Of a stretch of 64,000 nucleotides of DNA, positions 24,374 through 41,286 are shown in pieces (the stretch's first letter is position 1; each line of letters begins with the position of its first letter). The position numbers and the translations under genes were made by a program. The DNA is from Vicinamibacteria bacterium (GTDB lineage Bacteria > Acidobacteriota > Vicinamibacteria > Marinacidobacterales > Marinacidobacteraceae), in contig OY729431.1 of the NCBI GenBank assembly GCA_963422395.1, forward strand, positions 608,001 through 672,000. The letters run 5' to 3'. The notes below the pieces were generated by a model. It did no database searches. It had not been told where the DNA came from and worked only from the letters and a program-made list of their open reading frames with translations.

Positions 24374-24516
24374 ATGAAAACCTCCGACCCAAACCGGTCG
24401 TGGCCATCGAGCCGCGGGGCAGCGAACGGACTTCGCAGGTCGTGAAGAATGCTGCGGACCGGATCGTGAAGTGGAACACCGACAGCATCGTGCAAGCGAT
24501 CCGGGAGCTCGCATGA
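24374..24516 (+). pseudogene. Internally deleted TIR-like (DUF1863/ThsB-type) gene remnant
   Basis: RBS plus ATG AAA ACC (MKT) joined out of frame to KPVVAIEPRGSERTSQVVKNAADRIVKWNTDSIVQAIRELA*, recognisable as a DUF1863 C-terminus; stop overlaps the next ATG. Confidence 0.7.
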
Positions 24517-25587: not shown

Positions 25588-28500
25588 GTGTCGGGACGGC
25601 GGGGAAGGGACACGATCGTGGGTCGCGCGCTGGATCGGGAGCTGCGCCAGCAACTGGCGAAGGCGGTCCGTTCGGCGCGGAGGACCGCCGAGGCGGGAGC
25701 GCGGGCGGCACTCTCGGCGCTTTCGGTCGAAAGGGCGAAGGCCGATCCGTTCCTCTCCGCCGAAGAAAGACAGCTCCGGCGGCAGCTGCGGGCGCACGGG
25801 CGGCAACTCGGCGACCGGCAGCGAATCGGCAAGGCTGGCGAGGAGCAGGAGATCACCCGCCTGGCGCACGAGGTGGCCTACGAGCACTGGCACCGGATGC
25901 TGTTCGCCTGCTTCCTCGCCGAGAACCAGCTGCTGATCGAACCGGAATCCGGGGTCGCAGTGTCCCTCGACGAGTGCCGGGAGCTGGCGCGGGAGGGCGG
26001 CGAGAATTCCGGGAGCCCCTGGGCGCTCGCCGGGCGGTTCGCCGAAGCGATGCTGCCGCGCATCTTCCGCCCCGGCGATCCCTCGCTCGCGGTGCGGCTT
26101 CCCCCGGAGACCCGGCAGGCGCTCGAGGAGACGCTCGCCGAGCTGCCGGCGGCGGTCTTCCGCGCCGACGACGCGCTCGGCTGGACCTACCAGTTCTGGC
26201 AGGTCGACCGGAAGGACGAGGTGAACCGCAGCGGGAAGAAGATCGGGGCCGACGAGCTGCCGGCGGTCACCCAGCTCTTCACCGAGCCCTACCTGGTGCG
26301 CTTCCTCTTCCACAACACCGTCGGCGCCTGGCGGGCGGGGAAGATCCTCGAAGCGCGGCCCGAGCTCGCGGCGGGCGCCGAGAGCGAGGCCGAGCTCCGC
26401 CGCGCGGTCCGGATCGAGGCGGGAGGCGGCTACGACTTCGAGTACCTGCGCTTCGTCCGCGAGCCGTCCGCGGGCGATAACGGGGGCGAAGACGGGGGCG
26501 TCGGGCGCTGGCGGCCCGCCGCCGGGTCGTTCGGCGAGTGGCCGAGCTCCGCCGCCGAGCTGCGGGTGCTCGATCCCTGCTGCGGCAGCGGGCACTTCCT
26601 GGTCGAGGGCCTCCAGCTGTTCGTCCGGCTGCGGATGGAGGAGGAGGGGCTCGCGCCCGAAGAGGCGATCGGCGCGGTGCTGCGCGAAAACCTCCACGGA
26701 CTGGAGCTCGATCCGCGCTGCGCCCAGCTCGCCGCCTTCGCGGCGGCGTTCGCGGCTTGGAAGCTGGCCGGTAAGTTGGCCGGGAAATCTGCCGGGCGGG
26801 GGATCGAGCTGCCGCCGTTCCGGATCGCCTGCTCGGGGCTCGCCCCGAACGCGACGAAGGCGGAGTGGCTGGCGGTCGCCGAAAAAGCGTCGGCAGCGGC
26901 CGGTTCCGCAACCCGGAAAGACTCCTCCGAGAGACGGGAAATCCTCACCTCGGAGGCGCTCCGGCAGACTCTCGGGGCGCTCCACGACCTCTTCGTCCAG
27001 GGACCGACACTCGGTTCGCTCCTCGATCCGCGCGCCGCCGGCGAGAGCATGTTCGCGGCGCGGTTCGAGGCCGTGCGGCCGCTCCTCGACGCGGTGCTCG
27101 CCGAGAAGGAAGTGGACCCCGAGCGGCGGGAGCGGGCGGCGGCCGCCGCCGGGATGGCGGAAGCGGCCAATCTGCTCACCGCCCGCTACTCGCTGGTGAT
27201 CACGAATGTGCCCTACTTGTCGCGGGGGAAGCAGGACGGCGCGCTCCGCGCTTTCGCCGACGAGCGCCTTTCAGCGGCGAAGGGAGACCTGGCGACGATG
27301 TTCCTCGTCCGCTCGTTCGGCTGGCTCGGCGAAAGCGGGACCGCGGCGGTCGTCTCCCCGCAGAATTGGCTGTTCCTGAAGAGCTACCGGAAACTCCGCG
27401 AGAACCTGCTGACCGACCGGCGCTGGCGGATGGTGGCGCGCCTCGGCGCACATGCCTTCGAAGATTCCGGAGCCTTCACCGCGTTGGTCATCGTCTCCGC
27501 CGATAAAACCCGGGGGGGGGGGGGGGGGGGAGAGAGACTGTCGTTATGGATGTGTCCGCCCCACCGGGCCAGACTCCGATCCTGGCCCCGGAGAAGGCCC
27601 GCCTGCTCCCCAGCTGCCGCATCCATTCGGTGCGGCAAGCCGATCAGCTCAGAAATCCGAACTCTGTCGTCAGCATGGCAGTGTCCAACGAATCAGGACT
27701 ATTGGAATTACACGCATCCGGCCTGGCCGGCATGCTGACCGGTGACACCCCTAGATTCCTCAGCATGTTCTGGGAGTTCGCCGACATCTCGGAGTACTGG
27801 GCGTTCCTGCAATCGACCGTCGGTGAATCCATTCCGTTCGGGGGGCGTTCTGCCCTGGTCCAGTTCGATGGTCCGAATCGGCAGGATGAGCGTCCCTCTC
27901 CCTATGAACGCCTGCACGATTGCTACCGAAGAGGGAACAAGGCTTGGGGAAAGGAGGGCGTATCCGTTAGTTCGATGGGCGATCTCCCCGTCACGCTCTA
28001 CACCGGAGAACGATTCGATCCCAATGTTGGGTTAGTTCTGCCGAAGAATCCCGAGACGCTGCCGGCGGTGTGGTGTTTCTGCGCCTCGCCGGAATACGCC
28101 TGCCTAGTCCGCGAGGTAGACCAGAAACTCAATGTGACGAACGCGACCCTCGTCCAGGTCCCCTTCGATCTGGACCGCTGGAAGCGGGTCGCCGCCGAGC
28201 GCTACCCGAACGGCCTCCCGGAGCCCTATTCCGACGACCCCACCCAGTGGGTCTTCCACGGCCACCCCTGCGGCAGCGTCGTCTGGGACGAGGAGACGAA
28301 GCGGCTCGCCGAAGGTCCCCTCCGCACCGACGAGGCGGTGCTGCAGGTCGCAGCGGCGCGGCTCCTCGGCTACCGCTGGCCTGCGGAACACGACCCGGCG
28401 ATGCGCCTCGCCGAGGAGCAGCGCGCCTGGGTTTCCCGCTGTTCCGACCTCCACGAGTTCGCCGCCGCCGACGGGATCGTCTGCCTCCCCGCCGTGCGGG

Positions 28501-29336
28501 GCGAGCCCCGCGCCGAAGAAAGGCTCCGCGCACTCCTCGCCGCCGCCTACGGCGCAGCGTGGTCCTCGACGACCGAACAGCGCCTGCTGCGCGAGGCGGG
28601 GAGAGACGGCAAACCCGCGGCGAGCCTCGACGCTTGGCTCGAAAAGCACTTCTTCGAAGAGCACTGCCGCCTCTTCCACCACCGCCCCTTCGTCTGGCAC
28701 CTCTGGGACGGCCTCCCGGACGGCTTCTCGGCACTCGTCGCCTACCACCGGCTGGCAGGCCCGGACGGCGAGGGCCGAAGAACGCTCGAAGCGCTGACCC
28801 ACAGCTATCTCGGCGACTGGATCGACCGCCAGCGGGGAGAACTCCGCGAGGAGAGACCCGGTGCCGAAGGCCGGCTCACCGCCGCCCTCGAACTCAAGAC
28901 CCAGCTGGAGCGCATCCTGGAAGGGGAACCGCCGCTCGACCTCTTCGTCCGCTGGAAGCCGCTCCATCGCCAGCCGCTCGGCTGGGACCCGGACCTCGAC
29001 GACGGCGTCCGGCTGAACCTCCGCCCCTTCCTCCGGGCGGAGCTCCGCAAGGGCGGCCGGAGGGGGGCCGGCCTCCTCCGTTGGAAACCGGAACTCCACT
29101 GGAACAAGGACCGCGGCAAGGAACCCCGCACCCTCCGCGCGAAGCGCAGAGGCGAAGCGGGCGAGGAGATCCGCCCCCGCGCCGACTTCCCCTGGTTCTG
29201 GTCCTGCCCCGGAGACGGGAGCGAATCCGAACGCACCGACTTCTTCCCCGGCGGCCCCGCTTTCGACAGCCATCGCTGGAACGACCTCCACTATACGAAC
29301 GCCGTGAAACGCGCCGCCCGCGCCCGCCGCGAGTGA
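25588..29336 (+). CDS. pglX: BREX PglX-like N6-adenine methyltransferase, out of frame at a G19 tract
   Basis: TQLFTEPY, DPCCGSGHFL (motif I), NVPY (motif IV); C-terminal RPFVWHLWDG and GWDPDLDDGVRLN in the second frame (to 29336). Confidence 0.88.
27512..27530 (+). repeat. Poly-G homopolymer (G19) in pglX
   Basis: 19 consecutive G directly visible; the frame shift maps here. Confidence 0.95.
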
Positions 29337-29394: not shown

Positions 29395-29425
29395 GGACCG
29401 CCGATCAGCGGTCCATCTCTCTCTC
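29395..29425 (+). terminator. Possible weak intrinsic terminator or hairpin after pglX
   Basis: GGACCGC-cgatca-GCGGTCC followed by a pyrimidine-rich run. Confidence 0.3.
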
Positions 29426-29472
29426 GCGTCCTTTTCCTGTCCTGCGCACTTCCAAGCCATGACTTCCCCAGC

Positions 29473-29847
29473 ATGACCTTCTTCCGAAACCCGTCAGAAA
29501 TCTGGCAGCGCGAAGTGCCCGGCGCGCGCTGGTTCAAGACCGATCTCCATGTGCACACGATCGATGACCACGCCGGCAGCAGAGCGAAGGTTCCAACGGA
29601 ACTCTCCGGGATATCCGACCCCGAGGAAATGCTGCAGCGATATGCACGCCTCCTGGCGACCCACAACGCCAATATCGTGGTCAACGGCGATGCGGACATG
29701 GTGATCCTGCTGGAGGCTGACGCCGATCACGGAACCGTTGCTTGCGCAGGGGCCATCGAGATGCCCGAAGTGCGTGACGCTATCGTGCGAACGGTGGATG
29801 GCGGCAGGGCCGCCTTTCCGTTGCGCCGGACGAAGTACGGGTTCTGA
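29473..29847 (+). pseudogene. In-frame internal-deletion remnant of a PHP-ATPase (Ppl/TrlF-like)
   Basis: N-terminal GARWFKTDLHVHT (PHP start) fused directly to ATHNANIVVNGDAD...DGGRAAF..R..KY (ATPase end); both ends match the gene at 32399-35212. Confidence 0.85.
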
Positions 29848-29855
29848 GGCGCGTC

Positions 29856-31067
29856 ATGGAGTGGCTCGAAGTCATGAATCACATCGAGGCCGGCGAGAGC
29901 CGTACGGTTGAATTCAAGGAAGGATTCGATACCGGCAAGATCGGACCAGCGGCCTGCGCCTTCGCGAATACCGACGGAGGCGTCGTGATCTGCGGCGTCA
30001 ACGACGCCGGCGCCATCGTCGGCGTGGAGCGCGATCCCGACTCGGTGCACGAGCGGCTGACCGCCTTCCTGGGAAACGGATTCAACTATCCCATGACCGC
30101 TGCCTGTGGCCGTTATCAGGATCCGCAAGGCTGGGTCCACTGGGTTCAGGTACCGAAACAACGGAATCCCGAACCGATGCGATTCCGGGATGTCGCCTGG
30201 GTGCGTCGAGAGCGAAGCAGCGTCCGACCCTCTCCGAGCGAATTGGAGGGACTGAACAATCTGTTCGGATATGTGATGACCGAAGATCAGATCGTGTCCA
30301 GCGCAACCACTGAGGATATCGATGAGAGCTGTTTTCGGAATCACCTCGAACGGCAACGGTTTTCGAAGCGCAGGACGCGCCGACCGAATATCCTGGACGA
30401 CTATCGGAATTTCGATGTAGTGCGGGATCTCGAGAGAAGGCCGACACCGACCCTGTACGGCTTGCTGGCGTTCGGAACGAATCCACAACGGTTTCCGAAC
30501 ATGCGCCATCTACTGGTGCGAAACACCGCCTACGCGGGGATTGGCCGCGCAGCGGGGGTATCCCTGGCCATGGACGCCCGGGGGCGGCTCGCCGAACAGG
30601 TGGAAGGGAGTCTTCACTGGGCGCAGAGCCTGGGGCGGCAGGAATCCTATGGGACGGCGAGGCGGTCGGATCGGTTCGTATTGCCGATCCCCGCGCTGCG
30701 CGAGGCGATCGTGAACGCCGTCATCCACCGCGACTATGCGATCACCGGGACGCCGATCACGGTGGATGTGTTTCGGGATCGAGTCGAGATCGCCAGCCCG
30801 GGAACGCTTCCCAACGGAATGACGCTTTCGAGGCTACGACGCGGCGGCAACATCCGAACCAGAAACGAAACGATGGCGCATTACGCCATCGTGGAGGGAC
30901 TCATGGAATCGCGGGGAATGGGCTGGCCGGTGATCGAGGACGCGATGCACGAGTTCAATGGCACGGATCCCCGGATCGAGGAAGATCGCGAGGGCGCCTG
31001 GGTCCGGATAACTCTGGTTCTAGAACCAGGGAATACCGATGCGGCACATCCGCCCGATGCCGGCTGA
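29856..31067 (+). CDS. Schlafen/AlbA_2 + HATPase_c_4 protein, paralog 1
   Basis: GESRTVEFKE, AFANTDGG..ICGV, REAIVNAVIHRDY, SPG, RN. Confidence 0.88.
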   Translation: MEWLEVMNHIEAGESRTVEFKEGFDTGKIGPAACAFANTDGGVVICGVNDAGAIVGVERDPDSVHERLTAFLGNGFNYPMTAACGRYQDPQGWVHWVQVPKQRNPEPMRFRDVAWVRRERSSVRPSPSELEGLNNLFGYVMTEDQIVSSATTEDIDESCFRNHLERQRFSKRRTRRPNILDDYRNFDVVRDLERRPTPTLYGLLAFGTNPQRFPNMRHLLVRNTAYAGIGRAAGVSLAMDARGRLAEQVEGSLHWAQSLGRQESYGTARRSDRFVLPIPALREAIVNAVIHRDYAITGTPITVDVFRDRVEIASPGTLPNGMTLSRLRRGGNIRTRNETMAHYAIVEGLMESRGMGWPVIEDAMHEFNGTDPRIEEDREGAWVRITLVLEPGNTDAAHPPDAG

Positions 31068-31193
31068 AGGCGCGTCGCTGCGCCACATCGAGGCGATCAG
31101 TGGCAGGCCCGACGGAAACTCGACCCTTCCTGTGGGCGGAACTGCAGGAAAGGCAGCGATCGAGGATGCCAGCGGGGCGAGGAAAGTGACCTG

Positions 31194-32402
31194 ATGGACT
31201 GGAGCGAAGTGGAACGCCGCATCGCCGCCGGCGAGGACGAGCGCACCGAGTACAAGCGCGATGTATCCGATCTGCGAGCCGTGGGCCGGGCGCTTTGCGC
31301 CTTCGCCAACGGCGACGGAGGTCTGCTGATACTCGGGGTCGATGATTCCGGCGCGGTGGTCGGCACGCCCCAGGATCCCGAGAAGGTGCAAGAACGGCTG
31401 ACCGCTTTCCTCCACAGTGGGCTCGGCAAACCGGTTACCGCCCGCTGCGGGCGCCGGCGGACCGAAGGCGGGTGGGTTCACTGGATCGAAGTCCATCGCC
31501 ATCAGCGGGGCTACGAACCGTTTTCCCACGATGGACGGTTCTGGGTCCGGCGGGGCCGGGCGACGGCGGCGCCCTCCCCAGCGGAACTCCAGGAGCTGCT
31601 GAACGCCTTCGGTCTCGTTCTCACCGAACGGCAGATCGTCCCCTCGGCATCTGTCGAAGACCTCGACTTCAGCGCGGTGCGCTCCTTCCTGAGGGCGCAG
31701 GGGCTCGATACCGACGAGCCGCCGCAGCCGGCGCGCGAGGACGATCTGCTGAACGCCAGCATCGCCGATACGCTGGACGGCACCCTCCGGCCGACGCTCT
31801 ACGGACTCATGGTGTTCGGACGAGACCCGCAGGCATACCCCCACACTCCGAGCCTCTTCGTCCAGTGCGCGGCCTACGGCGGGGCGGACCAGGCCGCCGA
31901 AGTTCTGAGCGCCGGAGAGGGGAAAGGAAGACTGGAGGATCAGGTGAACCGCGCGATGGGCTGGTTCCGCAGCCTGGGCCGCAAGGAGGTGTACGAAGGG
32001 ATCTACCGGCGCGACATCGCACCGGTGCCGGAAGACGCCCTCCGCGAAGCGCTGGTCAACGCAGTGATCCACCGCGACTACGCGATCACCGGCTCGCCGG
32101 TATCGATCGAGGCGTTCGACGACCGCATCGTGGTCACCAGCCCCGGCGCGCTGCCGAACCACATGACGGTCGGGCAGGCGCGCGCCGGCGGCGCCCCCCG
32201 GTCGAGGAACGAGATGATGGCGAACGCCATGGTGGTCCGCGGGCTCATGGAGCGGCGGGGGCGCGGCTGGCTGCGGATGCGCCACTCCATGAAGCGCTTC
32301 AACGGGAGCGAGCCGGACCTCGAAAACGACGCGCAGAGCCGCTTCGTCCGGGTCACCTTCCGCCTGGGGCCGAAGCCGAAGCCGGCGGCGGCAGACCGAT
32401 GA
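31194..32402 (+). CDS. Schlafen/AlbA_2 + HATPase_c_4 protein, paralog 2
   Basis: GEDERTEYKR, AFANGDGG, REALVNAVIHRDY, SPG. Confidence 0.88.
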   Translation: MDWSEVERRIAAGEDERTEYKRDVSDLRAVGRALCAFANGDGGLLILGVDDSGAVVGTPQDPEKVQERLTAFLHSGLGKPVTARCGRRRTEGGWVHWIEVHRHQRGYEPFSHDGRFWVRRGRATAAPSPAELQELLNAFGLVLTERQIVPSASVEDLDFSAVRSFLRAQGLDTDEPPQPAREDDLLNASIADTLDGTLRPTLYGLMVFGRDPQAYPHTPSLFVQCAAYGGADQAAEVLSAGEGKGRLEDQVNRAMGWFRSLGRKEVYEGIYRRDIAPVPEDALREALVNAVIHRDYAITGSPVSIEAFDDRIVVTSPGALPNHMTVGQARAGGAPRSRNEMMANAMVVRGLMERRGRGWLRMRHSMKRFNGSEPDLENDAQSRFVRVTFRLGPKPKPAAADR

Positions 32403-35212
32403 GTGGCGCCGCCGGCTTCCCGCCCGGCGCCCGCTGGCGGCGCTTCGACTTCCACACGCATACCCCGGCTTCGATGGACTACGGGAGAGGCCCGAACCAC
32501 GAATCTCTCAAGAAACGCTCACCGCGCGAATGGCTGCTCGACTTCATGCGTGCCGAGATGGACTGCGTGGCGATCACCGATCACGACACCGGCGAGTGGA
32601 TCGACCGACTCAAGAAGGCATACGACCGTCTCGAAGAGGAACGACCGACGGATTTTCGCCCGCTCGTTCTCTTCCCGGGCGTCGAGATCACCGTGAACGG
32701 GGGCATCCACCTGCTGGCGATCCTGGATCCGTCGAAGGGCCGATCCGACATCGATGCGCTGCTCGGCGCAGTCGGCTTCCCCGGGGGCAAGCAAGGCACC
32801 TCCGATGGGTGCACTTCACAGTCTGTCCAGGAAGTTGCGCAGACCATCCGGAAGCGAGGCGGCCTCGCGATTCCTGCACATGCAGATTCCGAGAAGGGCA
32901 TCTTCGAGAGACTGGATGGAGAGACCCTGAGGTCGCTGTTGACCGAAGATCAGCTGTCCGCGCTGGAAGTCGCGGATCCGGAGTTCGACGAACCCGAGAT
33001 CTACCGACAGAGCGGTGTGAAGCTGGCGAGAGTCCTCGGTTCCGACTGCCACCACCCCTCGGGGTCTGCCGGCCAGGGTTTCCCCGGCAGCCGCTTCACT
33101 TGGGTGAAGATGGGGAAACCGTCCCTCGACGGGCTGCGGCTTGCGCTACTGGACGGCGCGCCGCTCTCCATCCTCCGAAGCGACGCCCCGATCGTCGATG
33201 GAGCCGACGATCCGAACGCGGAGCCCGGCCTGTGGATCGAAAGCGTCGAGGTCGCCGAGGCGCGCTACCTGGGTCGCGGCACGCCGGCACACGCCGCGTT
33301 CAGCCCCTGGCTCTCCGCCATCATCGGCGGCCGGGGGACCGGGAAATCCACGCTCGTCGAAATGGTGCGGCTAGCAATGCGCCGGCAGAACGAGCTCCCC
33401 GGAAGGCTGGGTGAGGAATTCCAGGAGTTCGCCGCCCCTGCCGAATCGAGGCATGGGCGGCGAGCGCTGACCGATTCCACCGAAGCCATCGTCTCGATCC
33501 GCAAGAACGGAGTGCAGTTTCGCGTGCGGTGGCGTACGGATGGCGGGGGAGCGGTCATCGAAGAGAGGACTCCCGACGGGGAGTGGAAAACGAGTCCCGG
33601 AGAGGTGGCCAGCCGGTTCCCCGTCCGAATCCTGAGTCAGAAACAGGTGTTCGCGCTCGCCAACGATCCGGACGCCTTGCTGCGCCTGGTGGATGACGCC
33701 GATCCGGTGAACCGGCGAGAGCGGGCCGCACGACGGGAAAAGGCGGAGGCCGAGTTTCTGAGTTTGCGCAGCCAGGCGCGCGCGATCGACGCCCGAATCA
33801 CCGAGCGAGAGCGAATCGAGGGTGACCTCGCGGATGTGCGGCGCCAGATCTCGGTCTTCGACGAGGGGGGACACCGGGACCTGTTGGTTCGCTACCAACG
33901 CTTCACCCGGCAGAAGCAGATTCTGACGGATCGGAATCGCGAGTTGAAAGCGAATGCCGCAGCGCTTCTCAAGCTCTCGCCCGAGATGGAGCCAGCTGAT
34001 GTTCGCGCGGACGATTTCGATCTCCGGGAAAAATCCTTCGGCAGACGAGCTCTGGACCTTCTGGAGGCGGCGGCCGGCCGGCAACGAAGAATTGCAGAGA
34101 ATCTTCGTGAACACGGGAGAGCTCTCGACGATTTCCGAAAGGAATGGATCGAGGAAGTCGCTGCTTCCAAGTGGAGTCAGGAATATGAGGCGGTGTGCGC
34201 TGCCTACCGGGAACTCATGGCCAGATTGGCCGAGGAAGGCGTCTCCGATCCTGGCAACTACGGCGCCCTGCTGCAGCGACGCGAATTGCTTCAGAGAATG
34301 TTGACAGAAATCGATTCCCTCGCGAAAAGAAAACAGAAGCTGGAGGCAGACGCCGATCGTTTTCTCGAAGAAGTGGAAACCGAGCGGAGAGCTTCGTCCA
34401 AAGCACGGATCCATTTCCTCCAATCGGTTTTGGGAGACAATCCGCACATTCGACTCGAGGTAGTGCCGTTCGGCTCGAACGCCCTCGCCGCCGAGCGCCG
34501 GTTTCGGAAGGCTATCGGCCGCGAGGATGGCGGGTTGGCGCCCGCAATCCTGAGCGAAGACGGCGAGACCGGAGAACTGGCCGAGCTCTTCCGAGACCTG
34601 TCGGATCACCAGGACGAGAGGCACCAGGAACTGGAAGGCCGCATTCGGAAAATCAAGAAACGCTTTGCCGAAGCCGGAAAAAAACCTGGGCCTTCGGGGA
34701 GACAGTGGTTGTGGAATCACCTCCGGCAGCTTTCGCCGGAACAGCGAGACCGCTTCCTCCTGTGGTGGCCGGAAGACGGTCTCGAAGTGCGCTACCGGAG
34801 GACGACGACGGGTAAGTTCGTTCCTCTCGAGCAGGGGTCTCCGGGACAGAAGTCGGCGGCCATCCTCGCACTCCTGCTTTCCTACGGCGACGAGCCGATT
34901 CTCCTGGATCAGCCGGAAGACGATCTCGACAACCATCTGATCCATGACCTCATCGTTCAGCGGATTCGGCAGAACAAGCGGAAGCGTCAGGTCATCATCG
35001 CCACGCACAACTCGAACATCGTCGTCAACGGAGACGCCGAAATGGTGATCTCCATGGATCATCTAGGCGGGCAGTGCGTCGTCGCCCCAGACGGAACCGG
35101 GTGTCTTCAGGACACGGGGGTGCGCGCCGAGGTCTGCCGGGTGATGGAAGGCGGTCGGAGAGCCTTCGAAAACCGATACCGCCGCCTGCGGGAGGAGTTC
35201 GACGATGCGTAG
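32399..35212 (+). CDS. PHP phosphoesterase + SMC/ABC-type ATPase (TrlF family, Ppl-like defence protein), 937 aa
   Basis: DFHTHT, AITDH, PAH and GSDCH PHP ligands; GGRGTGKST, coiled coil, SPGQ, LLDQPEDDLD, ATHN. Confidence 0.9.
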   Translation: MSGAAGFPPGARWRRFDFHTHTPASMDYGRGPNHESLKKRSPREWLLDFMRAEMDCVAITDHDTGEWIDRLKKAYDRLEEERPTDFRPLVLFPGVEITVNGGIHLLAILDPSKGRSDIDALLGAVGFPGGKQGTSDGCTSQSVQEVAQTIRKRGGLAIPAHADSEKGIFERLDGETLRSLLTEDQLSALEVADPEFDEPEIYRQSGVKLARVLGSDCHHPSGSAGQGFPGSRFTWVKMGKPSLDGLRLALLDGAPLSILRSDAPIVDGADDPNAEPGLWIESVEVAEARYLGRGTPAHAAFSPWLSAIIGGRGTGKSTLVEMVRLAMRRQNELPGRLGEEFQEFAAPAESRHGRRALTDSTEAIVSIRKNGVQFRVRWRTDGGGAVIEERTPDGEWKTSPGEVASRFPVRILSQKQVFALANDPDALLRLVDDADPVNRRERAARREKAEAEFLSLRSQARAIDARITERERIEGDLADVRRQISVFDEGGHRDLLVRYQRFTRQKQILTDRNRELKANAAALLKLSPEMEPADVRADDFDLREKSFGRRALDLLEAAAGRQRRIAENLREHGRALDDFRKEWIEEVAASKWSQEYEAVCAAYRELMARLAEEGVSDPGNYGALLQRRELLQRMLTEIDSLAKRKQKLEADADRFLEEVETERRASSKARIHFLQSVLGDNPHIRLEVVPFGSNALAAERRFRKAIGREDGGLAPAILSEDGETGELAELFRDLSDHQDERHQELEGRIRKIKKRFAEAGKKPGPSGRQWLWNHLRQLSPEQRDRFLLWWPEDGLEVRYRRTTTGKFVPLEQGSPGQKSAAILALLLSYGDEPILLDQPEDDLDNHLIHDLIVQRIRQNKRKRQVIIATHNSNIVVNGDAEMVISMDHLGGQCVVAPDGTGCLQDTGVRAEVCRVMEGGRRAFENRYRRLREEFDDA

Positions 35213-36482
35213 TGCGACAGAACGGCTGCTGCGCGAAATCCGGCTCGGAGAAGACAGCTTTCTCGAGCTCAAGGAAGTCTTCTTCTCTGGTGAGAAAGTC
35301 AAGGCACCGACGCGAAAGGCTCTGGCCGACGAGCTGTCGGCCTTCGCCAACAGTCGAGGCGGCGTTCTCATTCTCGGGATCCACGACCGCAGCCGTGAAG
35401 TGGTCGGGATTCCGGAGAGCCGCCTCGACGCCGTGGTAACCCAGGTCCGCGAGGCGGCCCGGGATCTGGTGATCCCTCCGCTGGATGTCGTCGTCGAACG
35501 GATGGAAGTCCCGGATACCGGGGGTGGAGTGCAGTGCATCGTTCGTGTGTCGGTGGGTCGAAGTCTGTTCGTGCATCGGAGCCCCGGCGGCTATCTGAAA
35601 CGGGTGGCGGACGAAAAGCGGGAAATCACGCCCGACGCGCTTCGCCGGTTGTTCCAGCAACGCAGCCATGTCGGAGTGACCCGTTTCGATGGCGAAATCG
35701 TGGCGGCGGCCTCTTTCTCCGATCTGGATCCGGAACGGGTCCGGCGCTTTCGGACCGAAGCTACCGATGACGACGAGGAAACCCTCGCCTCCAAGCTGGG
35801 AATGACGCGAGAGGATGAGACCGGTGTGCGCCGCCCTACCGTGGGAGGCCTGCTGCTCGGATCGCGATCCGCAGAGCGATGGATGCCGAACACATTCGTT
35901 CAGGCGGTGGCGTATCGGGGCCGCTTCGTCGGCGACGGATCGGGGAACGAGAACTATCAGCTGGATTTCCGGGACATTCGCGGGCCGCTCGATGTCCAGG
36001 TCGCCGATGCGTGCCGGTTCGTGGCGCGGAACCAGCGGGTCGCAGCGGAGAAGACCATCGGACGCCGAGACATCCCGCAGTACCACCTCGGAGCCGTCTT
36101 CGAGGCCATGGTGAACGCCGTGGCGCATCGCGATTATTCGGTGTACGGATCGAAGATCCGGCTGCGCATGTTTTCCGACCGTCTCGAACTGTTCTCGCCG
36201 GGGGAGATGCCGAACACCATGACCGTGGATGCTCTTCCTTACAAGCAGATCAGCAGGAACGAAACGATCACCAGTCTGCTCGCGCGGTGCCCCGTGCCGA
36301 AGGGGATTCCCGGCCTGACCACTCCTCGAAAGACCCTGATGGATCGGCGAGGCGAAGGCGTGGGGTTGATCCTCCGGGAAAGCGAGGAGCACTCGGGACG
36401 CCGACCGGTGTACGAACTCCTGGACGGAACCGAATTGCGGCTGACGATCTACGGAGCAGACGGGAAACGAGGCACGGCGTGA
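35205..36482 (+). CDS. Schlafen/AlbA_2 + HATPase_c_4 protein, paralog 3
   Basis: GEDSFLELKE, AFANSRGG, EAMVNAVAHRDY, SPG, SRN. Confidence 0.88.
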   Translation: MRSATERLLREIRLGEDSFLELKEVFFSGEKVKAPTRKALADELSAFANSRGGVLILGIHDRSREVVGIPESRLDAVVTQVREAARDLVIPPLDVVVERMEVPDTGGGVQCIVRVSVGRSLFVHRSPGGYLKRVADEKREITPDALRRLFQQRSHVGVTRFDGEIVAAASFSDLDPERVRRFRTEATDDDEETLASKLGMTREDETGVRRPTVGGLLLGSRSAERWMPNTFVQAVAYRGRFVGDGSGNENYQLDFRDIRGPLDVQVADACRFVARNQRVAAEKTIGRRDIPQYHLGAVFEAMVNAVAHRDYSVYGSKIRLRMFSDRLELFSPGEMPNTMTVDALPYKQISRNETITSLLARCPVPKGIPGLTTPRKTLMDRRGEGVGLILRESEEHSGRRPVYELLDGTELRLTIYGADGKRGTA

Positions 36483-36733
36483 TCCCCCGTCCAGGTGGAT
36501 TCTCCGATTCCGACCCTCCGCTGCCTGAAGAGACAGGAGCGGCTTCACCGAAAAAGCGCTGGATGTTCACGGAATCCGAGTTGCTCGCACACTACGGCCT
36601 GGCGCAGCGGGGTCCCCACGATTGGCGGCTCACGAACGCGGCGCTTCTGCTGTTCGGCCGACGGTCCGGATTCCGATGGCAGCCGCGGGCTGGAATCCGC
36701 ATGTTTCGCGCCGACGAGCGCCACGAACCATGA
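36479..36733 (+). pseudogene. Short remnant, possibly of a fourth AlbA/HATPase-type gene
   Basis: LLAHYGL...LTNAALLLFG resembles the PTLYGLLAFG-type mid-region of the paralogs; coupled by GTGA/ATGA overlaps on both sides. Confidence 0.45.
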
Positions 36734-39111
36734 ATCTGTTGCCGCAGCAGCCGCGCGAGACCCTGCTCGACCTGCTGGTCGAGAGCGTCCGCAAGCGGGG
36801 CGTCCCGGCAGGCGGGGAGGCGCCGCCGGCTGCTGTGCTCTGGTCCGATCCGGAGCGCGAATGGGAGCCGCTCCTCGCGCTGCTCCGGGAGCGCCTTCCC
36901 GAGCTTCGGATTCTCGGGGAGTACCGACCCGGGCGGCGCACCGGCCCGGCGATCTGGCTGCGGTGCGAAGTGGACGGCGGCTCTGACGAAGCCGGCGGCG
37001 CTGACGGGGCCGGCGAGTCAGGCGCCGAGCGCGAACGAATCCCCATCCTCTACCTGCCGAGGGTGAGCCGGCAGGACCTCCGCGCCGGCGAAGAGTGTCC
37101 GGACCGCCTGAAACCGCTCGTCGAGCTGCTCCACCGCGGGGCGGTCTGGCGCCACTCCAACGGGAGAGACTGGACGGTGGCCGGCTTCTTCCGTTCTTCG
37201 GCAGGCGGGGGGCTGGACCTCGCCGAGGATCGCCGCACCGCGAAGGCGCTCCGCGGGGCGCTCGACGAGGCGGTGATGACTCCGCTCGCGCAGCTGCGAG
37301 GCCGACGGCTCGAAGCCGACGACTTCCACCGGCTGCAGGTCGAGGATCTAGCTCGGGATCTGCTCCGCTGGCTCGGCGACCCGGACGGAACGCGGGACCG
37401 GCTCGGCGACCGCTGGAACGCTTTCTGCAGCCGGTGCCGGAAGGAGCTGGATTTCGACCCCGAGAGCGGCGGCGGCGGCGCGGATGTCCAAGCCGGACAG
37501 CAGCTCGGTCAGGCGGCAGGCAGCTGGGCGGCGGTGTGGGAGCGGTTCGCCGAAGCGCCGGACGCATTCCCCGGGATCGAGGCGGTGCTGCGCCGAAGCC
37601 AGCCCGCCAGCCGGCTTTTCCTCGGGGACCCGGCGCGCTGGCCGAACGAGAACGACCGCATCGAGGCGGCACTTCGAGAAGCGCTCACCGAGCTGCCCCG
37701 TCTGACGCAACCGAAGGCATGCGACCGGGTGGTGCAGCTCGCTCGGGAGCACGGAAAGCGGCGGGAGTGGGTCTGGGCGCGCCTCGGAAGATCGCCGCTC
37801 GCGCTCGCGCTCGGACCGCTCGGGCGCCTCGCCGGGGCGGCGAAGCCGCCGCTCGGCGGCGAAGGCCCCGAAGAAGCGGCAGCGGCCTACCTGGAGCGCG
37901 GCTGGCAGGCCGACGCCGCGGCGTGGGAGGCGCTGGCGGCGGTCGGCGCCGCCGACGAAACGGTCGTGGCGCCGGCCGTCCGCCAGCTGCTCGAACCCTG
38001 GCTCGACGGCTCGGCGCGCGCCTTCCAGGAAGCCGTCCGGTGCCGACCGCTTCCCGACGCCGGCGAGCAGCCGGTCGTCGAGGCCGACGAGGATGGCTGC
38101 CTCTTCTTCGTGGACGGGCTGCGCTACGACCTCGGCCGGCGGCTCGCCGAGCGGCTGGAAGGACGCGGGCTCCGGGCCGAGGTGAGGCCCCGCTGGGCGG
38201 CGCTTCCCACGGTGACCGCCACCGCGAAGCCGGCGGTGACGCCGATTGCCCCCGACATCGCGGGGGAGACTCTTGGCGAAGACTTCGCCCCTCAGTTCGT
38301 CGAAACCGGACGGCCGGTGGAGGCGAGGGGCCTGCGTGCTGCCCTCGGGGAGAGGGGGTACCAGATCCTCGGGGCGGGCGGCTTCGATGCGCCGCGTTCG
38401 GCGGCGTCTCGCGGCTGGATCGAGACCGGGGAGATCGACGAGACCGGACATCACGAGCAGGGCGGTCTGCCCCGGCAGCTCCCGCAAATCCTCGACCGCC
38501 TCGCCGAGCGGATCGCCGGTCTGTTGGAGAGGGGTTGGCGCGCGGTGCGCGTCGTCACCGACCACGGCTGGCTATGGCTCCCGGGCGGACTCCCGCGGGT
38601 GGATCTCCCGAAACACCTCACCGCGACCCGCTGGGCGCGCTGTGCCGTCCTCGCCGGGGCGGGAAGTCCCGAAGAAGTTCCGCGCTGGCCGTGGAGCTGG
38701 AACCGCGGGGAATGGTTCGCCGCCGCGCCGGGCATCGCCTGCTTCAACAAGTCGGACGCCTTCGCCCACGGCGGCCTCAGCATCCAGGAATGCCTGACCC
38801 CGGACCTCCTCGTCACGCGTTCCGGCGAAGCAGCGGCCCCTCCCACCACCATCGAATCCATCGCCTGGCGCTGGTTCCGCTGCAGCCTCGTGGCCGCCGG
38901 CGGGGCCGGCAGACGGACCGCCGACCTCCGCCTCGGAGGCCCCGCGGGCGAGTCCGTCGCCGCGGAACCGAAGCCGGTGGAAGCGGATGGTGCCGCCAGC
39001 CTCCTGCTCGCCGGCGACGAGCACGAAGCGGCGGCGCTTTCGCTGGTGGTTCTCGATGAGAACGGGAAAATTCTCGCCGCCCGCGAAACCCGCGTGGGAG
39101 AGGACTCGTGA
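36730..39111 (+). CDS. pglZ: BREX phosphatase/nuclease PglZ (type B-like)
   Basis: RTGPAIWLRC, FFVDGLRYD, LPTVTAT, VVTDHG, HGGLSIQEC. Confidence 0.92.
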   Translation: MNLLPQQPRETLLDLLVESVRKRGVPAGGEAPPAAVLWSDPEREWEPLLALLRERLPELRILGEYRPGRRTGPAIWLRCEVDGGSDEAGGADGAGESGAERERIPILYLPRVSRQDLRAGEECPDRLKPLVELLHRGAVWRHSNGRDWTVAGFFRSSAGGGLDLAEDRRTAKALRGALDEAVMTPLAQLRGRRLEADDFHRLQVEDLARDLLRWLGDPDGTRDRLGDRWNAFCSRCRKELDFDPESGGGGADVQAGQQLGQAAGSWAAVWERFAEAPDAFPGIEAVLRRSQPASRLFLGDPARWPNENDRIEAALREALTELPRLTQPKACDRVVQLAREHGKRREWVWARLGRSPLALALGPLGRLAGAAKPPLGGEGPEEAAAAYLERGWQADAAAWEALAAVGAADETVVAPAVRQLLEPWLDGSARAFQEAVRCRPLPDAGEQPVVEADEDGCLFFVDGLRYDLGRRLAERLEGRGLRAEVRPRWAALPTVTATAKPAVTPIAPDIAGETLGEDFAPQFVETGRPVEARGLRAALGERGYQILGAGGFDAPRSAASRGWIETGEIDETGHHEQGGLPRQLPQILDRLAERIAGLLERGWRAVRVVTDHGWLWLPGGLPRVDLPKHLTATRWARCAVLAGAGSPEEVPRWPWSWNRGEWFAAAPGIACFNKSDAFAHGGLSIQECLTPDLLVTRSGEAAAPPTTIESIAWRWFRCSLVAAGGAGRRTADLRLGGPAGESVAAEPKPVEADGAASLLLAGDEHEAAALSLVVLDENGKILAARETRVGEDS

Positions 39112-41195
39112 ACGAAACGGCTGGCCGATCGGCGAGCAAGTCCGCAAACGGCCTGGATCGGCTGGACCGGATCGGCGCCGAGGCGTTTCCCGGGTACCTG
39201 GTGCGGAAGGATCTGGTGCGGCGCTACTCGCGGCAGTTTCCGGTGCCCACCTATGTCGTCGAGTTCCTGCTCGGTCGCTTCTGCGCGAGCACCGACGAAA
39301 CCGAGATCCGGGAGGGTCTCGAAATCGTCGAGGGCCAGCTTCGCGGCCGCACCGTCCGGGCATCCGACCGGGAGCGGTTCCGGTCCGAAGCCCGCGAAAA
39401 GGGGTCCGTCCGGCTGATCGACCTGGTGCGCGCGCGGCTCGACGCCCGGCGCGACTGCTACCTGATCGAGCTCCCGAGCCTCGGCGAGCGGCAGGTCGGC
39501 ATCGAGGCGAAGACCGTGCTGGAGAACCAGCGGATGCTCACCGACGGCTTCTACGCCGAAGTGACGCTTCGCTACGACCCGCTCGCGGCGCCGGAATCCC
39601 GCGGCGAACCCTTCCGGGTGGAGGCGCTGCGTCCGATCCAGATGTCGGATCCCGAGGTGCTGCGGCGGCTGGCCGAAGGCCGGCGGGCGTTTTCGACCGC
39701 CGAGTGGCGCGACTTCCTGATCCGCTCCGTCGGGCTGGAACCGGACGCGCTCGACGAACGGGCGAAACGGGTTGCGCTGCTGCGGATGGCGCCCTTCGTC
39801 GAGCGGAATTTCAACCTCGTGGAACTCGGCCCCCGGGGTACCGGCAAGAGCCACCTCTACCAGCAGATCTCCCCGTACTCGCACCTGATCTCCGGGGGGA
39901 AGGCCACCGTCGCCAAGATGTTCGTGAACATGGCGAATGGCCAGCGCGGCCTCGTCTGCCGATACGATGTCGTCTGCTTCGACGAAGTCGCCGGCATCTC
40001 CTTCGACCAGAAGGACGGCGCGAACATCATGAAGGGGTACATGGCGTCGGGGGAGTTCAGCCGCGGCAAGGAGAGCATCCGTGCCGACGGCGGGATCGTG
40101 ATGGTCGGGAACTTCGATCGGGATCTCGAACGCCAGCAGCGGGTCGGCCATCTGCTGAGCGCGCTGCCGAAGGAAATGCGGAACGACACTGCTTTCCACG
40201 ACCGGATCCACGCCTATGTGCCGGGATGGGACTTCCCGAAACTGAACCCGGACGAACACTTCACCGACCGGTTCGGGCTCGTCACCGACTTCCTGAGCGA
40301 ATGCTGGACGCGGATGCGGGAGACGCCGCGGATATCGGCGCTCCAGGGCCGCGCGTACTGGGGAGGGGCGCTGAGCGGGCGCGATCAGGAGGCGGTGAAC
40401 AAGACCTGCTCGGCGCTGGTCAAACTCCTGTTCCCCGATCCGAAGATGGAAATTCCGGACGAGGATCTGGAATGGATCCTCCGGGTCGCGCTGGAATCCC
40501 GGCGCCGCGTCAAGGAACAGCAGAAGCGCTGCCTCAAGAGCGAGTTCCGCAACACCCACTTCTCCTTCACGCTCGGGGCCGACGGGATCGAGCAGTTCGT
40601 CGGCACCCCGGAATTGCGGAGCGGCGACGCCCTCGAGGGCGACCCGCTCCCGCCGGGACAAGTCTGGTCGGTGGGTCCGGGAACGGGCGAGACCGGCCCC
40701 GGCCTCTACCGGATCGAGGCGGCGGTGGGTCCCGGCAGCAGCGCCCGGATCCTGAACCACCCGGTACCGCCCGCCTTCCGGGAGAGCGTTCGGGTCGGCG
40801 AGCAGAACCTCTACGCCCAGGCGAAAGCTCTGGTTGGTGACCGCGACCCGCGGGGGCACGAGTACCAGCTCCAGTTACGCCCGTACGACGCCGACCGTTC
40901 CGGCGCCGGACTCGGGCTGCCGGTGCTGGTGGCGCTGGTGGGCAGCCTGCTGGAGCGCAGCGTCCGCGGCGGGACGATCGTGGTGGGAAGCCTGAACCTC
41001 GGCGGCTCGGTCGAGGGGCTGCTGCGCCCCGTAGAGATCGCGGAACTCGCGGTCGAACGGCAGGCCGCCGTCCTCCTGATGCCGGTGTCCGCCCGCCGGG
41101 ATCTGAGCGATCTCCCCGACGACCTCTGGACCCGCATCAACATCGAGTTCTATGCAGACCCCGCCGCCGCGGTGTTCAAGGCGCTCCTCGACTGA
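39108..41195 (+). CDS. brxL: BREX Lon-related AAA+ protein BrxL
   Basis: VPTYVVEFLLG, ELGPRGTGKS, CFDEV, AFHDRIH; degenerate Lon-like C-terminal domain. Confidence 0.93.
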   Translation: MNETAGRSASKSANGLDRLDRIGAEAFPGYLVRKDLVRRYSRQFPVPTYVVEFLLGRFCASTDETEIREGLEIVEGQLRGRTVRASDRERFRSEAREKGSVRLIDLVRARLDARRDCYLIELPSLGERQVGIEAKTVLENQRMLTDGFYAEVTLRYDPLAAPESRGEPFRVEALRPIQMSDPEVLRRLAEGRRAFSTAEWRDFLIRSVGLEPDALDERAKRVALLRMAPFVERNFNLVELGPRGTGKSHLYQQISPYSHLISGGKATVAKMFVNMANGQRGLVCRYDVVCFDEVAGISFDQKDGANIMKGYMASGEFSRGKESIRADGGIVMVGNFDRDLERQQRVGHLLSALPKEMRNDTAFHDRIHAYVPGWDFPKLNPDEHFTDRFGLVTDFLSECWTRMRETPRISALQGRAYWGGALSGRDQEAVNKTCSALVKLLFPDPKMEIPDEDLEWILRVALESRRRVKEQQKRCLKSEFRNTHFSFTLGADGIEQFVGTPELRSGDALEGDPLPPGQVWSVGPGTGETGPGLYRIEAAVGPGSSARILNHPVPPAFRESVRVGEQNLYAQAKALVGDRDPRGHEYQLQLRPYDADRSGAGLGLPVLVALVGSLLERSVRGGTIVVGSLNLGGSVEGLLRPVEIAELAVERQAAVLLMPVSARRDLSDLPDDLWTRINIEFYADPAAAVFKALLD

Positions 41196-41286
41196 CCGCA
41201 GCGGCTGGAATGCCCAGGCAACGCCCCGGATCCCACCGCACCGACCCCGCCAGGGCAACCGAGTGCATCTTCGTCAGAGGAGCGGC

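Follow-up and report, generated by a model that had tools for sequence, protein, structure and literature searches.

Tandem trlF-trlG cassettes, a probable two-gene defence unit, in the pglX-pglZ interval of a type 1 BREX operon

Among the closest described relatives of the locus reported here is the "temperature restriction locus" (TRL) of Photorhabdus laumondii, which consists of trlR, trlF and trlG (Hapeshi et al. 2020, PMC7554251). According to the available part of that report, TrlG possesses an AlbA_2 domain (residues 14-128) and a HATPase_c_4 domain (298-365), transcription of the TRL goes up on a temperature up-shift, and loss-of-function changes in trlG permit growth at 36 °C, which implies that TrlG arrests growth. 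The temperature-tolerant mutations listed there include none in trlF, the larger gene; thus, the arrest by TrlG may be independent of TrlF. The same available text reads the TRL as temperature control and contains no mention of phage. Ppl is described in the accessible part of a review (PMC12904381) as a self-sufficient, NTP-inhibited 3'-5' exonuclease and single-gene defence. Among prokaryotic Schlafen proteins, the pSlfn-histidine-kinase architecture is the commonest (34% of 5,930; PMC13056530, as far as available); at most two such genes were tried alone in E. coli and gave no protection against the phages used. Two supplementary neighbour tables of the same source (files 6 and 11) list "Gao_Ppl__PplA" 76 times each, and "Ppl" is absent from its main text as available. 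For SLFN-pAgo, ATP-driven oligomerisation is reported to activate tRNA cleavage. Fusions of a Schlafen RNase with a minimal histidine kinase, described with a C-terminal wHTH, were reported from at least 1017 taxa in close linkage with BREX core loci, under the name of backup suicidal effectors (PMC12839542, available part).

The window, i.e., the whole stretch of 64,000 nucleotides that was analysed, contains a type 1 BREX operon with brxB, brxC, pglX, pglZ and brxL all co-oriented, as recognized by Pfam, PADLOC and NCBIfam (Table 1). The true start of brxB is internal to its ORF, and no brxA gene was located for this operon. A sequence-only reading had placed a PHP-ATPase remnant, two AlbA genes, an intact PHP-ATPase gene and a third AlbA gene, in this order, between pglX and pglZ, and this arrangement was borne out by Pfam and NCBIfam. 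The insert is probably best explained as two tandem TRL (trlF-trlG) cassettes, the TRL being a mobile two-gene cassette of defence islands, with a Ppl-like TrlF and a Schlafen-GHKL TrlG, which would serve as an abortive second layer. Cassette B (32399-36482) is intact; in cassette A (29473-32402) TrlF is short of about 794 codons and two TrlG paralogues are kept.

Table 1. Features of the BREX operon and its insert (positions in the window)
Feature	Position	Strand	Evidence
brxB	C-terminal part (residues 355-435) of ORF 19305..20657	+	Pfam BrxB 5.6e-08
brxC, BREX P-loop protein	20684..24355	+	NCBIfam BREX_BrxC 625.5 bits (cut-off 400); PADLOC BrxC 1165 bits
Small 8xMP-family membrane protein gene, between brxC and pglX	24471..24998	+	Pfam 8xMP 4.8e-32
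pglX methyltransferase, two frames	25588..29336	+	PADLOC PDLC02528, 746.6 + 698 bits
G19 homopolymer at pglX frame junction	27512..27530	+	sequence and script
TrlF-A remnant, 124-aa ORF	29473..29847	+	NCBIfam TrlF positions 880-944, 94.4 bits; BLASTP to TrlF of G349 and G170
TrlG-A1, Schlafen/AlbA_2 + GHKL-like HATPase_c_4, 403 aa	29856..31067	+	Pfam
TrlG-A2, SLFN_AlbA_2 + HATPase_c_4, 402 aa	31194..32402	+	Pfam
TrlF-B, intact, 937 aa	32399..35212	+	NCBIfam TrlF 588.8 bits; conserved motifs; AlphaFold2 model pLDDT 86.3
TrlG-B, SLFN_AlbA_2 + HATPase_c_4, 425 aa	35205..36482	+	Pfam; model pLDDT 87.2; Schlafen and histidine-kinase folds
82-codon open tail, ATGA overlap with pglZ	36485..36733	+	weak BLASTP match to TrlG-B residues 171-228, E 0.037
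pglZ, BREX-1 type B	36730..39111	+	NCBIfam BREX_PglZ_1_B 798.1 bits (cut-off 400); start read from sequence
brxL, Lon-like protein	39108..41195	+	Pfam BrxL_ATPase 5.1e-125; PADLOC BrxL 904 bits
Fic-domain protein after brxL (SoFic / PDC-S04-like)	41152..42741	+	Pfam Fic 3.1e-17; PADLOC PDC-S04 1.2e-22, SoFic 7.9e-22

The pglX reading frame is not intact: ORF 25588-27738 corresponds to positions 3-568 of the PADLOC PglX profile and ORF 27546-29336 to positions 600-1121, the halves being one base out of frame and meeting at the G19 tract. This tract is the sole homopolymer of at least 10 bases in the window, and public contigs end at it. The split would allow a phase-variable switch-off of BREX; as an alternative to a real frameshift, it may be a homopolymer-length error in the assembly. 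An extension of pglX as far as the remnant was considered and rejected, since the profile match runs to position 1121 of 1125 and pglX ends at 29336.

The first remnant proved to be genuine. In BLASTP its residues 1-61 align with the same positions of TrlF from genome G349 (61% identity) and its residues 60-124 with positions 856-920 of that protein (77%); the matches to both ends point to the loss of about 794 internal codons, by which the first ~61 and the last ~65 codons of a PHP-ATPase were fused in frame. The remnant was found too in contigs of three other runs. TrlF-B belongs to the family TrlF_fam_ATP (NCBIfam NF045780, cut-off 350 bits), which it matches over profile positions 2-943 of 944, and comprises a PHP domain (1-260), an ABC-type ATPase head (278-433 and 794-937) and a coiled coil (439-678). 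In an alignment of 17 TrlF sequences H19, H21, H62, E96, H104, H161, D216 and H218 were invariant, as were G310-S317, S814/G816/Q817, D837-D844 and H870; the former we take to be the metal-binding His and acidic residues of the PHP domain, the latter presumably represent Walker A (G310-S317), signature (S814/G816/Q817), Walker B and H-loop, and the PHP metal-site and ATPase motifs are all present in TrlF-B. On sequence grounds TrlF is Ppl-like and joins a PHP phosphoesterase to a coiled-coil NTPase of the ABC/SMC type.

The three TrlG paralogues have their AlbA_2 and HATPase_c_4 domains at residues 14-124 and 298-383 (TrlG-A1), 14-124 and 300-388 (TrlG-A2), and 16-141 and 315-415 (TrlG-B). Identity is 47% between TrlG-A1 and TrlG-A2 and 28% between TrlG-A1 and TrlG-B. 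TrlG-A2 is the counterpart of the gene which follows TrlF-A-type genes (70% identity in G170, 61% in G349). TrlG-B, whose start overlaps the stop of TrlF-B by 8 nt, is 41-64% identical to the gene directly downstream of TrlF in 11 of 11 loci, and would appear to be the cognate partner of TrlF-B. The E-x4-E-x-K motif noticed earlier in all three AlbA domains (E14, E19 and K21 of TrlG-A1) is indeed kept throughout: E16, E21, K23 and N49 were invariant among 34 aligned TrlG sequences, D61 was present in at least 90%, and the motif aligns with that of Schlafen 8 and SLFN14. Foldseek searches with the TrlG-B model retrieved SLFN5/11/13/14 (E ~1e-5 to 1e-6) as well as histidine kinases and PDK (~4e-4), and all three paralogues matched the PADLOC pAgo model over its SLFN-GHKL part. 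TrlG therefore conforms to the prokaryotic Schlafen nucleases, with Ex4(E/D)xK in a Schlafen-fold domain, and is predicted to combine such a nuclease with an ATP-binding domain of the GHKL (histidine-kinase-like) type. Database names such as "predicted HTH transcriptional regulator", and the wHTH of the BREX-linked Schlafen-kinase proteins (PMC12839542), could suggest that TrlG is chiefly a DNA-binding regulator of BREX or TrlF expression and not a nuclease. This is highly improbable, since both TrlG clades keep the E-x4-E-x-K motif and the D after it with little or no variation, no HTH family was detected by Pfam in the three window proteins, and the Photorhabdus loss-of-function phenotype is a release from growth arrest (PMC7554251, available part).

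All genes of the insert are on the forward strand, and the start/stop chaining which had been claimed holds at 32399/32402, 35205/35212 and 36730/36733 (82-codon tail and pglZ); within BREX a further overlap occurs at 39108/39111. A second remnant, claimed before pglZ, is less certain: ORF 35879-36733 mostly overlaps TrlG-B in another frame, and its free part, the last 82 codons (36485-36733), shows a weak resemblance to the central part of an AlbA-HATPase protein (E 0.037 in a comparison with five proteins). It might represent a piece of yet another AlbA-HATPase gene and is at most a putative remnant. No terminator signal above background was detected. Co-transcription of the insert with BREX, which could be argued solely from this and from the overlaps, is not supported.

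The adjacency of PHP-ATPase and AlbA_2-HATPase genes held up as a real pair in a neighbourhood survey. An AlbA-HATPase gene lay directly 3' of TrlF, co-oriented, in 11 of 11 close relatives (11 lineages, genome contigs); among 400 other genomes of the phylum it was the next downstream gene for 17 of 28 evaluable TrlF-family genes, and in a second sample, of the class around G401, for 9 of 10, one of these being the same gene as L010. A search of 400 genomes gave no Ppl above the curated cut-off. HATPase_c_4 matches numbered about 203 in the 400 genomes of the phylum sample (212 listed in all, minus 9 in G000), mostly apart from TrlF (about 203 versus 17 pairs); for genomes of a few thousand genes, far fewer than one pair would be expected from random placement by a rough estimate. 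The pairing is beyond chance, strongly enriched and widely distributed. Annotated records with the pair include Yersinia ruckeri pYR3, a Burkholderia thailandensis plasmid and the E. coli IncC plasmid pNDM102337. Additional AlbA copies are present in L049 and L065 as well.

TrlG is not required by TrlF, which was solitary in 11 of the 28 cases of the phylum sample, in 1 of 10 of the other sample, and on the two plasmids whose gene neighbourhoods were inspected, a conjugative one of Enterobacterales and one of Azospirillum. Together with the single-gene status of Ppl (PMC12904381), the abundance of pSlfn-histidine-kinase genes and the location of most HATPase_c_4 genes elsewhere, this would fit two independent single-gene defences which share a hot spot, TrlF acting alone like Ppl and TrlG alone like other Schlafens, their adjacency due to common carriage. 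We consider this unlikely: a loose hot-spot link would give varied order, strand and spacing, whereas the two genes keep one order and orientation, with a stop/start overlap that is 4-22 nt long in most pairs. Moreover, no two of the three TrlF clades share a TrlG type, and BREX, type I R-M and plasmid backbones have received the two genes together as a unit. Identities of TrlF and TrlG to the window proteins correlate with r = 0.74 (n = 15, a descriptive value only).

The location between pglX and pglZ likewise recurs: the order pglX-TRL-pglZ was found in unrelated lineages (L004, L014, L047, L049, L055 and L066), and the TRL adjoins pglZ in 4 of 9 other BREX loci with type B PglZ in the phylum sample. 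In L051 two tandem cassettes lie between a PglX-like gene and brxL, no pglZ having been identified there, and on pNDM102337 the order is hsdR-TrlF-TrlG-hsdS. Type I and type II R-M, HKD/PLD nuclease and recombinase genes are further neighbours of TRL. This context, overwhelmingly one of defence, and the defence-validated relatives of both protein families make it improbable that TRL is a stress- or temperature-responsive growth control or a toxin-antitoxin-like addiction module, in which TrlG would be the toxin and TrlF a modulator, stabilizing the carrier island. Such a module would agree with the carriage on plasmids and mobile islands and with the sole recorded phenotype, a temperature restriction through TrlG with transcription rising on up-shift (PMC7554251, available part); yet arrest at high temperature is also how auto-activation of an abortive effector would be expected to look.

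From the genes, motifs, folds, conserved pairing and recurrent nesting that were observed directly we infer the biochemical activities, any contact between TrlF and TrlG, and an anti-phage role of the pair. TrlF could sense infection through free 3' DNA ends and/or a drop in NTP, as Ppl is said to do, and its PHP domain would degrade DNA. TrlG, presumably coupled translationally to TrlF, might upon activation assemble by means of its GHKL domain and, active as a Schlafen nuclease, would then cut tRNA and so bring about growth arrest. From its place within operons of BREX or type I R-M, the cassette could be inherited and expressed with the host system, and TRL may add a second layer of an abortive kind for cases in which modification-based defence fails or is phase-OFF. 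The clean division into sensor ATPase and RNase effector, as originally proposed, is doubtful, since TrlF has a complete PHP site, Ppl is self-sufficient and 11 of 28 TrlF genes have no AlbA gene next to them. Protection by a PHP-ATPase independent of AlbA, which would speak against a two-component module, applies to Ppl and not to TrlF having a partner. Cassette A, with two intact TrlG and no working TrlF, is not easily reconciled with an obligatory restraining role for TrlF. A stronger version is put forward tentatively: TRL would be an obligate two-protein anti-phage system, in which TrlF licenses or releases a Schlafen-GHKL tRNase, and an "insurance" cassette repeatedly inserted in modification systems (pglX/pglZ of BREX, hsdR/hsdS of type I R-M), firing when these are blocked by anti-restriction proteins or are phase-OFF. 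If true, this would explain why the commonest Schlafen class gave no protection when tested alone.

Should TrlF and TrlG act together, the PADLOC-type label "Ppl" overlooks half of a two-gene system, there would be a candidate partner for the pSlfn-histidine-kinase class as well as a trigger open to testing, and the temperature restriction of Photorhabdus would be auto-immunity of a defence cassette. The overlap-chained nesting in BREX and type I R-M provides a natural set of loci for the coupling of modification-based and abortive defences, and widespread Enterobacterales IncC plasmids carry the same cassette, which opens it to experiment in E. coli.

The insert cannot be called undescribed, as had been suggested, because its pair is the trlF-trlG operon of Photorhabdus (PMC7554251) and Schlafen-kinase genes linked to BREX have been reported (PMC12839542). 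The literature already covers Ppl as single-gene defence, the role of bacterial Schlafens as effectors of defence, and the presence of Schlafen-histidine-kinase genes within BREX; TrlF and TrlG as one two-gene defence cassette, recurrent nesting of TRL inside BREX and type I R-M operons, and its tandem expansion were not found in the searchable literature. The components are all known; the unit itself is not known to have been described as one.

With Ppl (Gao_Ppl / PplA) TrlF-B shares the end-to-end architecture (NCBIfam Ppl_antiphage NF042955, positions 1-882 of 882 at 563.3 bits; PADLOC Ppl 476 bits) and intact PHP and NTPase motifs; it differs in scoring below the curated cut-off of 1000 bits, so that it is no equivalog, and in having a dedicated downstream partner. 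pSlfn1 (pSlfn-His_Kinase_A) and SLFN-GHKL-pAgo share with TrlG the Ex4(E/D)xK motif, the Schlafen fold and a fused GHKL/histidine-kinase-like domain, but are treated as single-gene systems with a fused sensor, whereas the candidate sensor or co-effector of TRL is a separate upstream gene. The BREX backup effectors (PMC12839542) are likewise nuclease modules within the BREX core operon; the available main text of that paper pairs their Schlafen gene with no ATPase and contains neither "PHP" nor "Ppl". PARIS is one of these embedded effectors, and in it, too, an ABC ATPase (AriA) is partnered with a tRNA-cutting effector (AriB). However, TrlF has its own PHP nuclease and matches AriA only weakly and in the C-terminal half, in the ATPase (PADLOC, E 2e-12, residues 626-874), and the partner at the locus is a Schlafen-GHKL protein (Pfam, PADLOC) and not a Toprim DUF4435 protein, no AriB-like gene being present there. 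The Photorhabdus TRL is a close counterpart: it has the same PHP-type "histidinol phosphatase" ATPase followed by an AlbA_2 and HATPase_c_4 protein, and the window agrees with it in the order trlF, then trlG, in the N-terminal AlbA_2 domain and in a HATPase_c_4 domain near residue 300. NCBIfam names the family of the window's ATPase after Photorhabdus TrlF, and the TRL copy on pYR3, cited in PMC7554251, was retrieved with window TrlG at 29% identity; the window TrlG types are only distant relatives of enterobacterial TrlG. The Photorhabdus operon includes trlR (79 aa), which is lacking directly upstream of the window cassettes, where TrlF-B is preceded by TrlG-A2 with overlapping codons and the remnant by 136 nt and then pglX; the cassette of the window differs further in being nested in BREX and doubled, with one copy degenerate.

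TrlF, a Ppl-like PHP-ATPase, and TrlG, an AlbA_2 (Schlafen) protein with an HATPase_c_4 domain, form a conserved, translationally coupled pair (TRL) in which both proteins keep their active-site motifs and which is repeatedly nested in modification-based defence operons. When close relatives were scanned with the intact TrlF-B as query, using one genome per species, an AlbA-HATPase ORF was found directly downstream and on the same strand at 11 of 11 loci from 11 lineages, one of them cut by a contig end. These neighbours showed identities of 41–64% to TrlG-B and of 23–33% to TrlG-A1 and TrlG-A2; thus, TrlG-B is the cognate partner of TrlF-B. A sample of 400 other genomes of the phylum yielded 28 TrlF-family genes with readable downstream sequence, after four fragmentary or weak loci (L039–L042) and one contig-end fragment (genome G071) had been dropped; the next gene was an AlbA-HATPase ORF in 17 of them and not in 11, one of the latter belonging to the unpublished genome G152. 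The same genomes contained about 203 HATPase_c_4 matches (212 listed less 9 in the window's own genome), and by a rough estimate far less than one such adjacency would be expected by chance. In a second sample, 400 genomes around G401, nine of ten TrlF-like genes were paired, one of the nine being the same gene as at locus L010. The adjacency which the sequence-only reading had taken for a functional module is thus a real pairing.

Stop and start codons overlapped in most pairs. The identities of TrlF and TrlG to the window proteins were correlated (r = 0.74, n = 15), a value which is descriptive, since the relatives are not independent. In a quick maximum-likelihood tree calculated from 45 TrlF proteins, with several long branches and unsure deep placements, three paired clades could be seen, and every one had a TrlG type of its own; TrlF genes without a partner occupied two deep clades and were scattered elsewhere. 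The TrlF genes with the highest NCBIfam scores (613–661 bits; loci L044, L046 and L048) made up a deep solitary clade. At L044 (genome G021, 11530–12774) the ORF next to TrlF encodes 415 aa without a Pfam family, possibly an unrelated partner.

The window spans 608001–672000 of contig C1 in a genome of 2.9 Mb and about 70% G+C. A type 1 BREX island of co-oriented genes lies at about 19.3 to 42.7 kb of the window, and the five genes claimed from the sequence between pglX and pglZ are present as described (see table).

Genes of the BREX island and of the TRL insert (positions in the window)
Feature	Position	Remarks
brxB	inside ORF 19305-20657	
brxC	20684-24355	
8xMP membrane-protein gene (small)	24471-24998	175 aa
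pglX	25588-29336	two frames
TrlF-A remnant	29473-29847	cassette A
TrlG-A1	29856-31067	cassette A; AlbA_2+HATPase_c_4, 403 residues
TrlG-A2	31194-32402	cassette A; AlbA_2+HATPase_c_4, 402 residues
TrlF-B	32399-35212	cassette B; 937 residues
TrlG-B	35205-36482	cassette B; AlbA_2+HATPase_c_4, 425 residues
pglZ type B	36730-39111	
brxL	39108-41195	
Fic-domain gene	41152-42741	529 aa

The two frames of pglX join at a G19 tract (27512–27530), which is followed by (AG)3 and is the sole homopolymer of at least 10 bases in the 64-kb window. The tract looks like a phase-variation switch, with the BREX methylase OFF in the assembly, the alternative being an error of homopolymer length in the assembly; public contigs of the sequencing runs X1, X4 and X6 are interrupted there. 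Between 24300 and 43000, no promoter-like sites were detected, and 11 terminator-like sites were obtained against 12.2 expected, a scan which carries little information at 70% G+C. The ORFs 28070–29476 and 35879–36733 were rejected as genes, since they had no family matches and overlapped better-supported frames. The 82 free codons 5' of pglZ (36485–36733) showed a weak likeness to the middle part of an AlbA-HATPase (E 0.037). The protein encoded between brxC and pglX belongs to the 8xMP (octameric membrane protein) family and is a second non-core component of this BREX operon. The Fic-domain protein encoded directly 3' of brxL matched PADLOC PDC-S04 and SoFic, and its residues 116–168 show a weak likeness to DDE transposases (Pfam E 2.1e-4). 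Six of the 9 HATPase_c_4 matches in the genome lie outside the BREX/TRL locus; two of these six, at 32328 and 2904694, scored identically and may represent a repeated element.

TrlF-B, whose start codon overlaps the stop codon of the gene before it (ATGA), scored 588.8 bits in the NCBIfam TrlF family (cut-off 350), 563.3 bits against the Ppl cut-off of 1000, and 475.9 bits with the PADLOC Ppl model. The TrlF-A remnant consists of residues 1–61 of a TrlF (61% identity to that of genome G349), joined in frame to residues 856–920 (77%); two TrlF ends fused in this manner mean that about 794 codons have been deleted internally. The parent belonged to another TrlF clade than the intact TrlF-B. Among public contigs from two studies, one of run X1 spans the remnant and most of TrlG-A1 with 0 differences, and contigs of runs X4 and X6 lead from the end of pglX through the remnant and TrlG-A1 into TrlG-A2, the X6 contig differing from the window at about 1–4% of bases. 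From the remnant onward, a compensated pair at 32511/32515 was the only indel event among those listed; two further indels were counted without listed positions. Since these contigs carry the remnant stretch, the deletion is real and older than the split of these strains. Some contigs of X1 and X4 also contained joints, 29331 to 35189 (5857 bases skipped) and 30736 to 32152 (1415 skipped), with shorter sides of 21–22 letters. Joints with sides of 21–30 letters were discounted as likely repeat artefacts between paralogues; these two are probably assembly-graph links between paralogous stretches, the alternative being a rare deletion variant.

The nearest relatives of the remnant were the TrlF proteins of genomes G170 and G349. 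The genes 3' of these showed 70% and 61% identity, respectively, to TrlG-A2 and 46–48% to TrlG-A1, so that there are two cassettes in the window: A, with the remnant, TrlG-A1 and TrlG-A2, and B, with TrlF-B and TrlG-B. As a type, cassette A is known from two intact examples only. Additional TrlG copies were seen in more than one genome: in G170 a first AlbA gene is followed by a second. Genome G073, a member of the window genome's class, shows a layout which is akin to that of the window, expanded differently: its locus L049 (8685–14841) contains pglX, then TrlF, two tandem genes of TrlG-B type, a C-terminal TrlG-A2-like piece (82% identity over 247 aa) and pglZ. A metagenome scan with TrlG-A2 produced one locus, L083, which is degenerate and lies on a 5.8-kb contig without TrlF. 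Its TrlG-A2-like sequence (1373–2257, 68% identity) is a decayed copy without residues 23–118, that is, most of the Schlafen domain.

The location between pglX and pglZ, pointed out from the sequence, recurs: the order pglX-TRL-pglZ was found at L004 (an uncultured deltaproteobacterium), L014 (Myxococcales), L047, L049, L055 and L066. At L051, with no pglZ assigned, two tandem cassettes are flanked by a PglX-like gene and brxL, and at L079 pglZ starts immediately 3' of TrlG. At L058 (genome G381, 3663–13397), a gene for an AlbA_2-HATPase_c_4-Fic_C protein is followed in turn by those for a large N6_N4 methylase, for TrlF and for a protein with a PglZ domain; this is apparently another type of PglZ-containing system which has the accessory genes in common with BREX. 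Of the 400 other phylum genomes, only nine had PglZ type B, and in four of these (G073, G136, G260, G349) TRL adjoins pglZ; in the tree, BREX-embedded cassettes were spread over all three paired clades. The nesting has a parallel in type I restriction-modification: on the E. coli IncC plasmid pNDM102337 (L086, NC_019045.2, 3371–7158), a member of a widespread plasmid family, the order is hsdR-TrlF-TrlG-hsdS-AAA-hsdM, all chained by overlaps. Solitary TrlF genes were found between hsdS and hsdR in genome G387, beside a type II restriction-modification system on a conjugative plasmid of Enterobacterales, and in Azospirillum. Relatives of TrlF were present in 473 plasmid records and those of TrlG-B in 54, including Yersinia ruckeri pYR3 and a Burkholderia thailandensis plasmid (TrlG, 56% identity).

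The AlphaFold2 model of TrlG-B (mean pLDDT 87.2) was compared with known structures by Foldseek. Its N-terminal domain matched the Schlafen cores of SLFN5, 11, 13 and 14 (E about 1e-5 to 1e-6) and the SAMD9 tRNase, its C-terminal half pyruvate dehydrogenase kinases and histidine kinases, and the whole chain Corynebacterium diphtheriae DIP2311 (3lmm, E 2.8e-20). A profile built from 34 TrlG sequences placed E-x4-E-x-K and the G-V-x-D after it on the corresponding motifs of Schlafen 8 and SLFN14; E16, E21 and K23 were invariant, as were E300, N304 and H308–Y311 of the GHKL-like N-box, and D61 was present in at least 90%. The TrlF-B model (pLDDT 86.3) comprises a PHP domain (1–260), an ABC-type head interrupted by a long coiled-coil segment (439–678), and an extra domain (684–790). 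The PHP histidines and ATPase motifs were invariant in 17 sequences, and a PDB sequence search with TrlF gave a marginal SMC match only. Complex prediction with TrlF 1–433, TrlF 794–937 and TrlG 1–420, an input shortened by the coiled coil for reasons of size, scored 0.00 against a mark of 0.32, a value which speaks neither for nor against a complex.

TrlF may act like Ppl, as a sensor of DNA ends or NTP levels with its own exonuclease; Ppl itself is described in a review (PMC12904381) as responsive to 3'-OH ends and as inhibited by NTP binding at both its PHP and its NTPase domain. TrlG could be an ATP-switched Schlafen tRNase which would arrest growth, and the two proteins jointly would then provide a second, abortive layer. 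In a SLFN-pAgo preprint, ATP binding to the GHKL domain leads to oligomerisation and active tRNA cleavage by the Schlafen domain. The operon trlR-trlF-trlG was named in Photorhabdus laumondii by Hapeshi et al. 2020 (PMC7554251), where cells became able to grow at 36 °C through a point mutation, a stop codon or an IS insertion in trlG; the mutations listed there include none in trlF. A requirement of TrlF for activation of TrlG is disfavoured by this lack of trlF mutants among those listed. An obligatory restraint of TrlG by TrlF is likewise disfavoured, because two intact TrlG genes stand beside the dead TrlF-A, unless TrlF-B serves both in trans.

Membership in PARIS was rejected for want of a Toprim partner, and true Ppl (NF042955, >1000 bits) was absent from the 400 genomes around G401. 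The word "phage" does not occur in PMC7554251. In a study of prokaryotic Schlafens (PMC13056530), seven systems were cloned and tested, and only the DUF262 fusion and the Ig-like fusion were protective; "Gao_Ppl__PplA" occurs 76 times in each of two supplementary neighbour tables and neither "Ppl" nor "PHP" in the main text. A BREX survey (PMC12839542) describes fusions of Schlafen RNases with a minimal histidine kinase and wHTH, which it terms backup suicidal effectors and whose genes it finds in close linkage to BREX or related core loci of at least 1017 taxa; "PHP" and "Ppl" are likewise missing from its main text. Word searches returned no paper on TrlF and TrlG as a defence system, although Krishnan et al. 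2020 (NAR 48:10045, on ABC ATPases and conflict systems) or the supplements of PMC12839542 may describe PHP-ABC/Schlafen operons. The sequence-only reading of an undescribed system holds therefore in part: the name of the pair, its components and the Schlafen-in-BREX theme are known, but within the literature searched there is no report of the two genes as one defence cassette, of the way in which it is nested or of its expansion in tandem.
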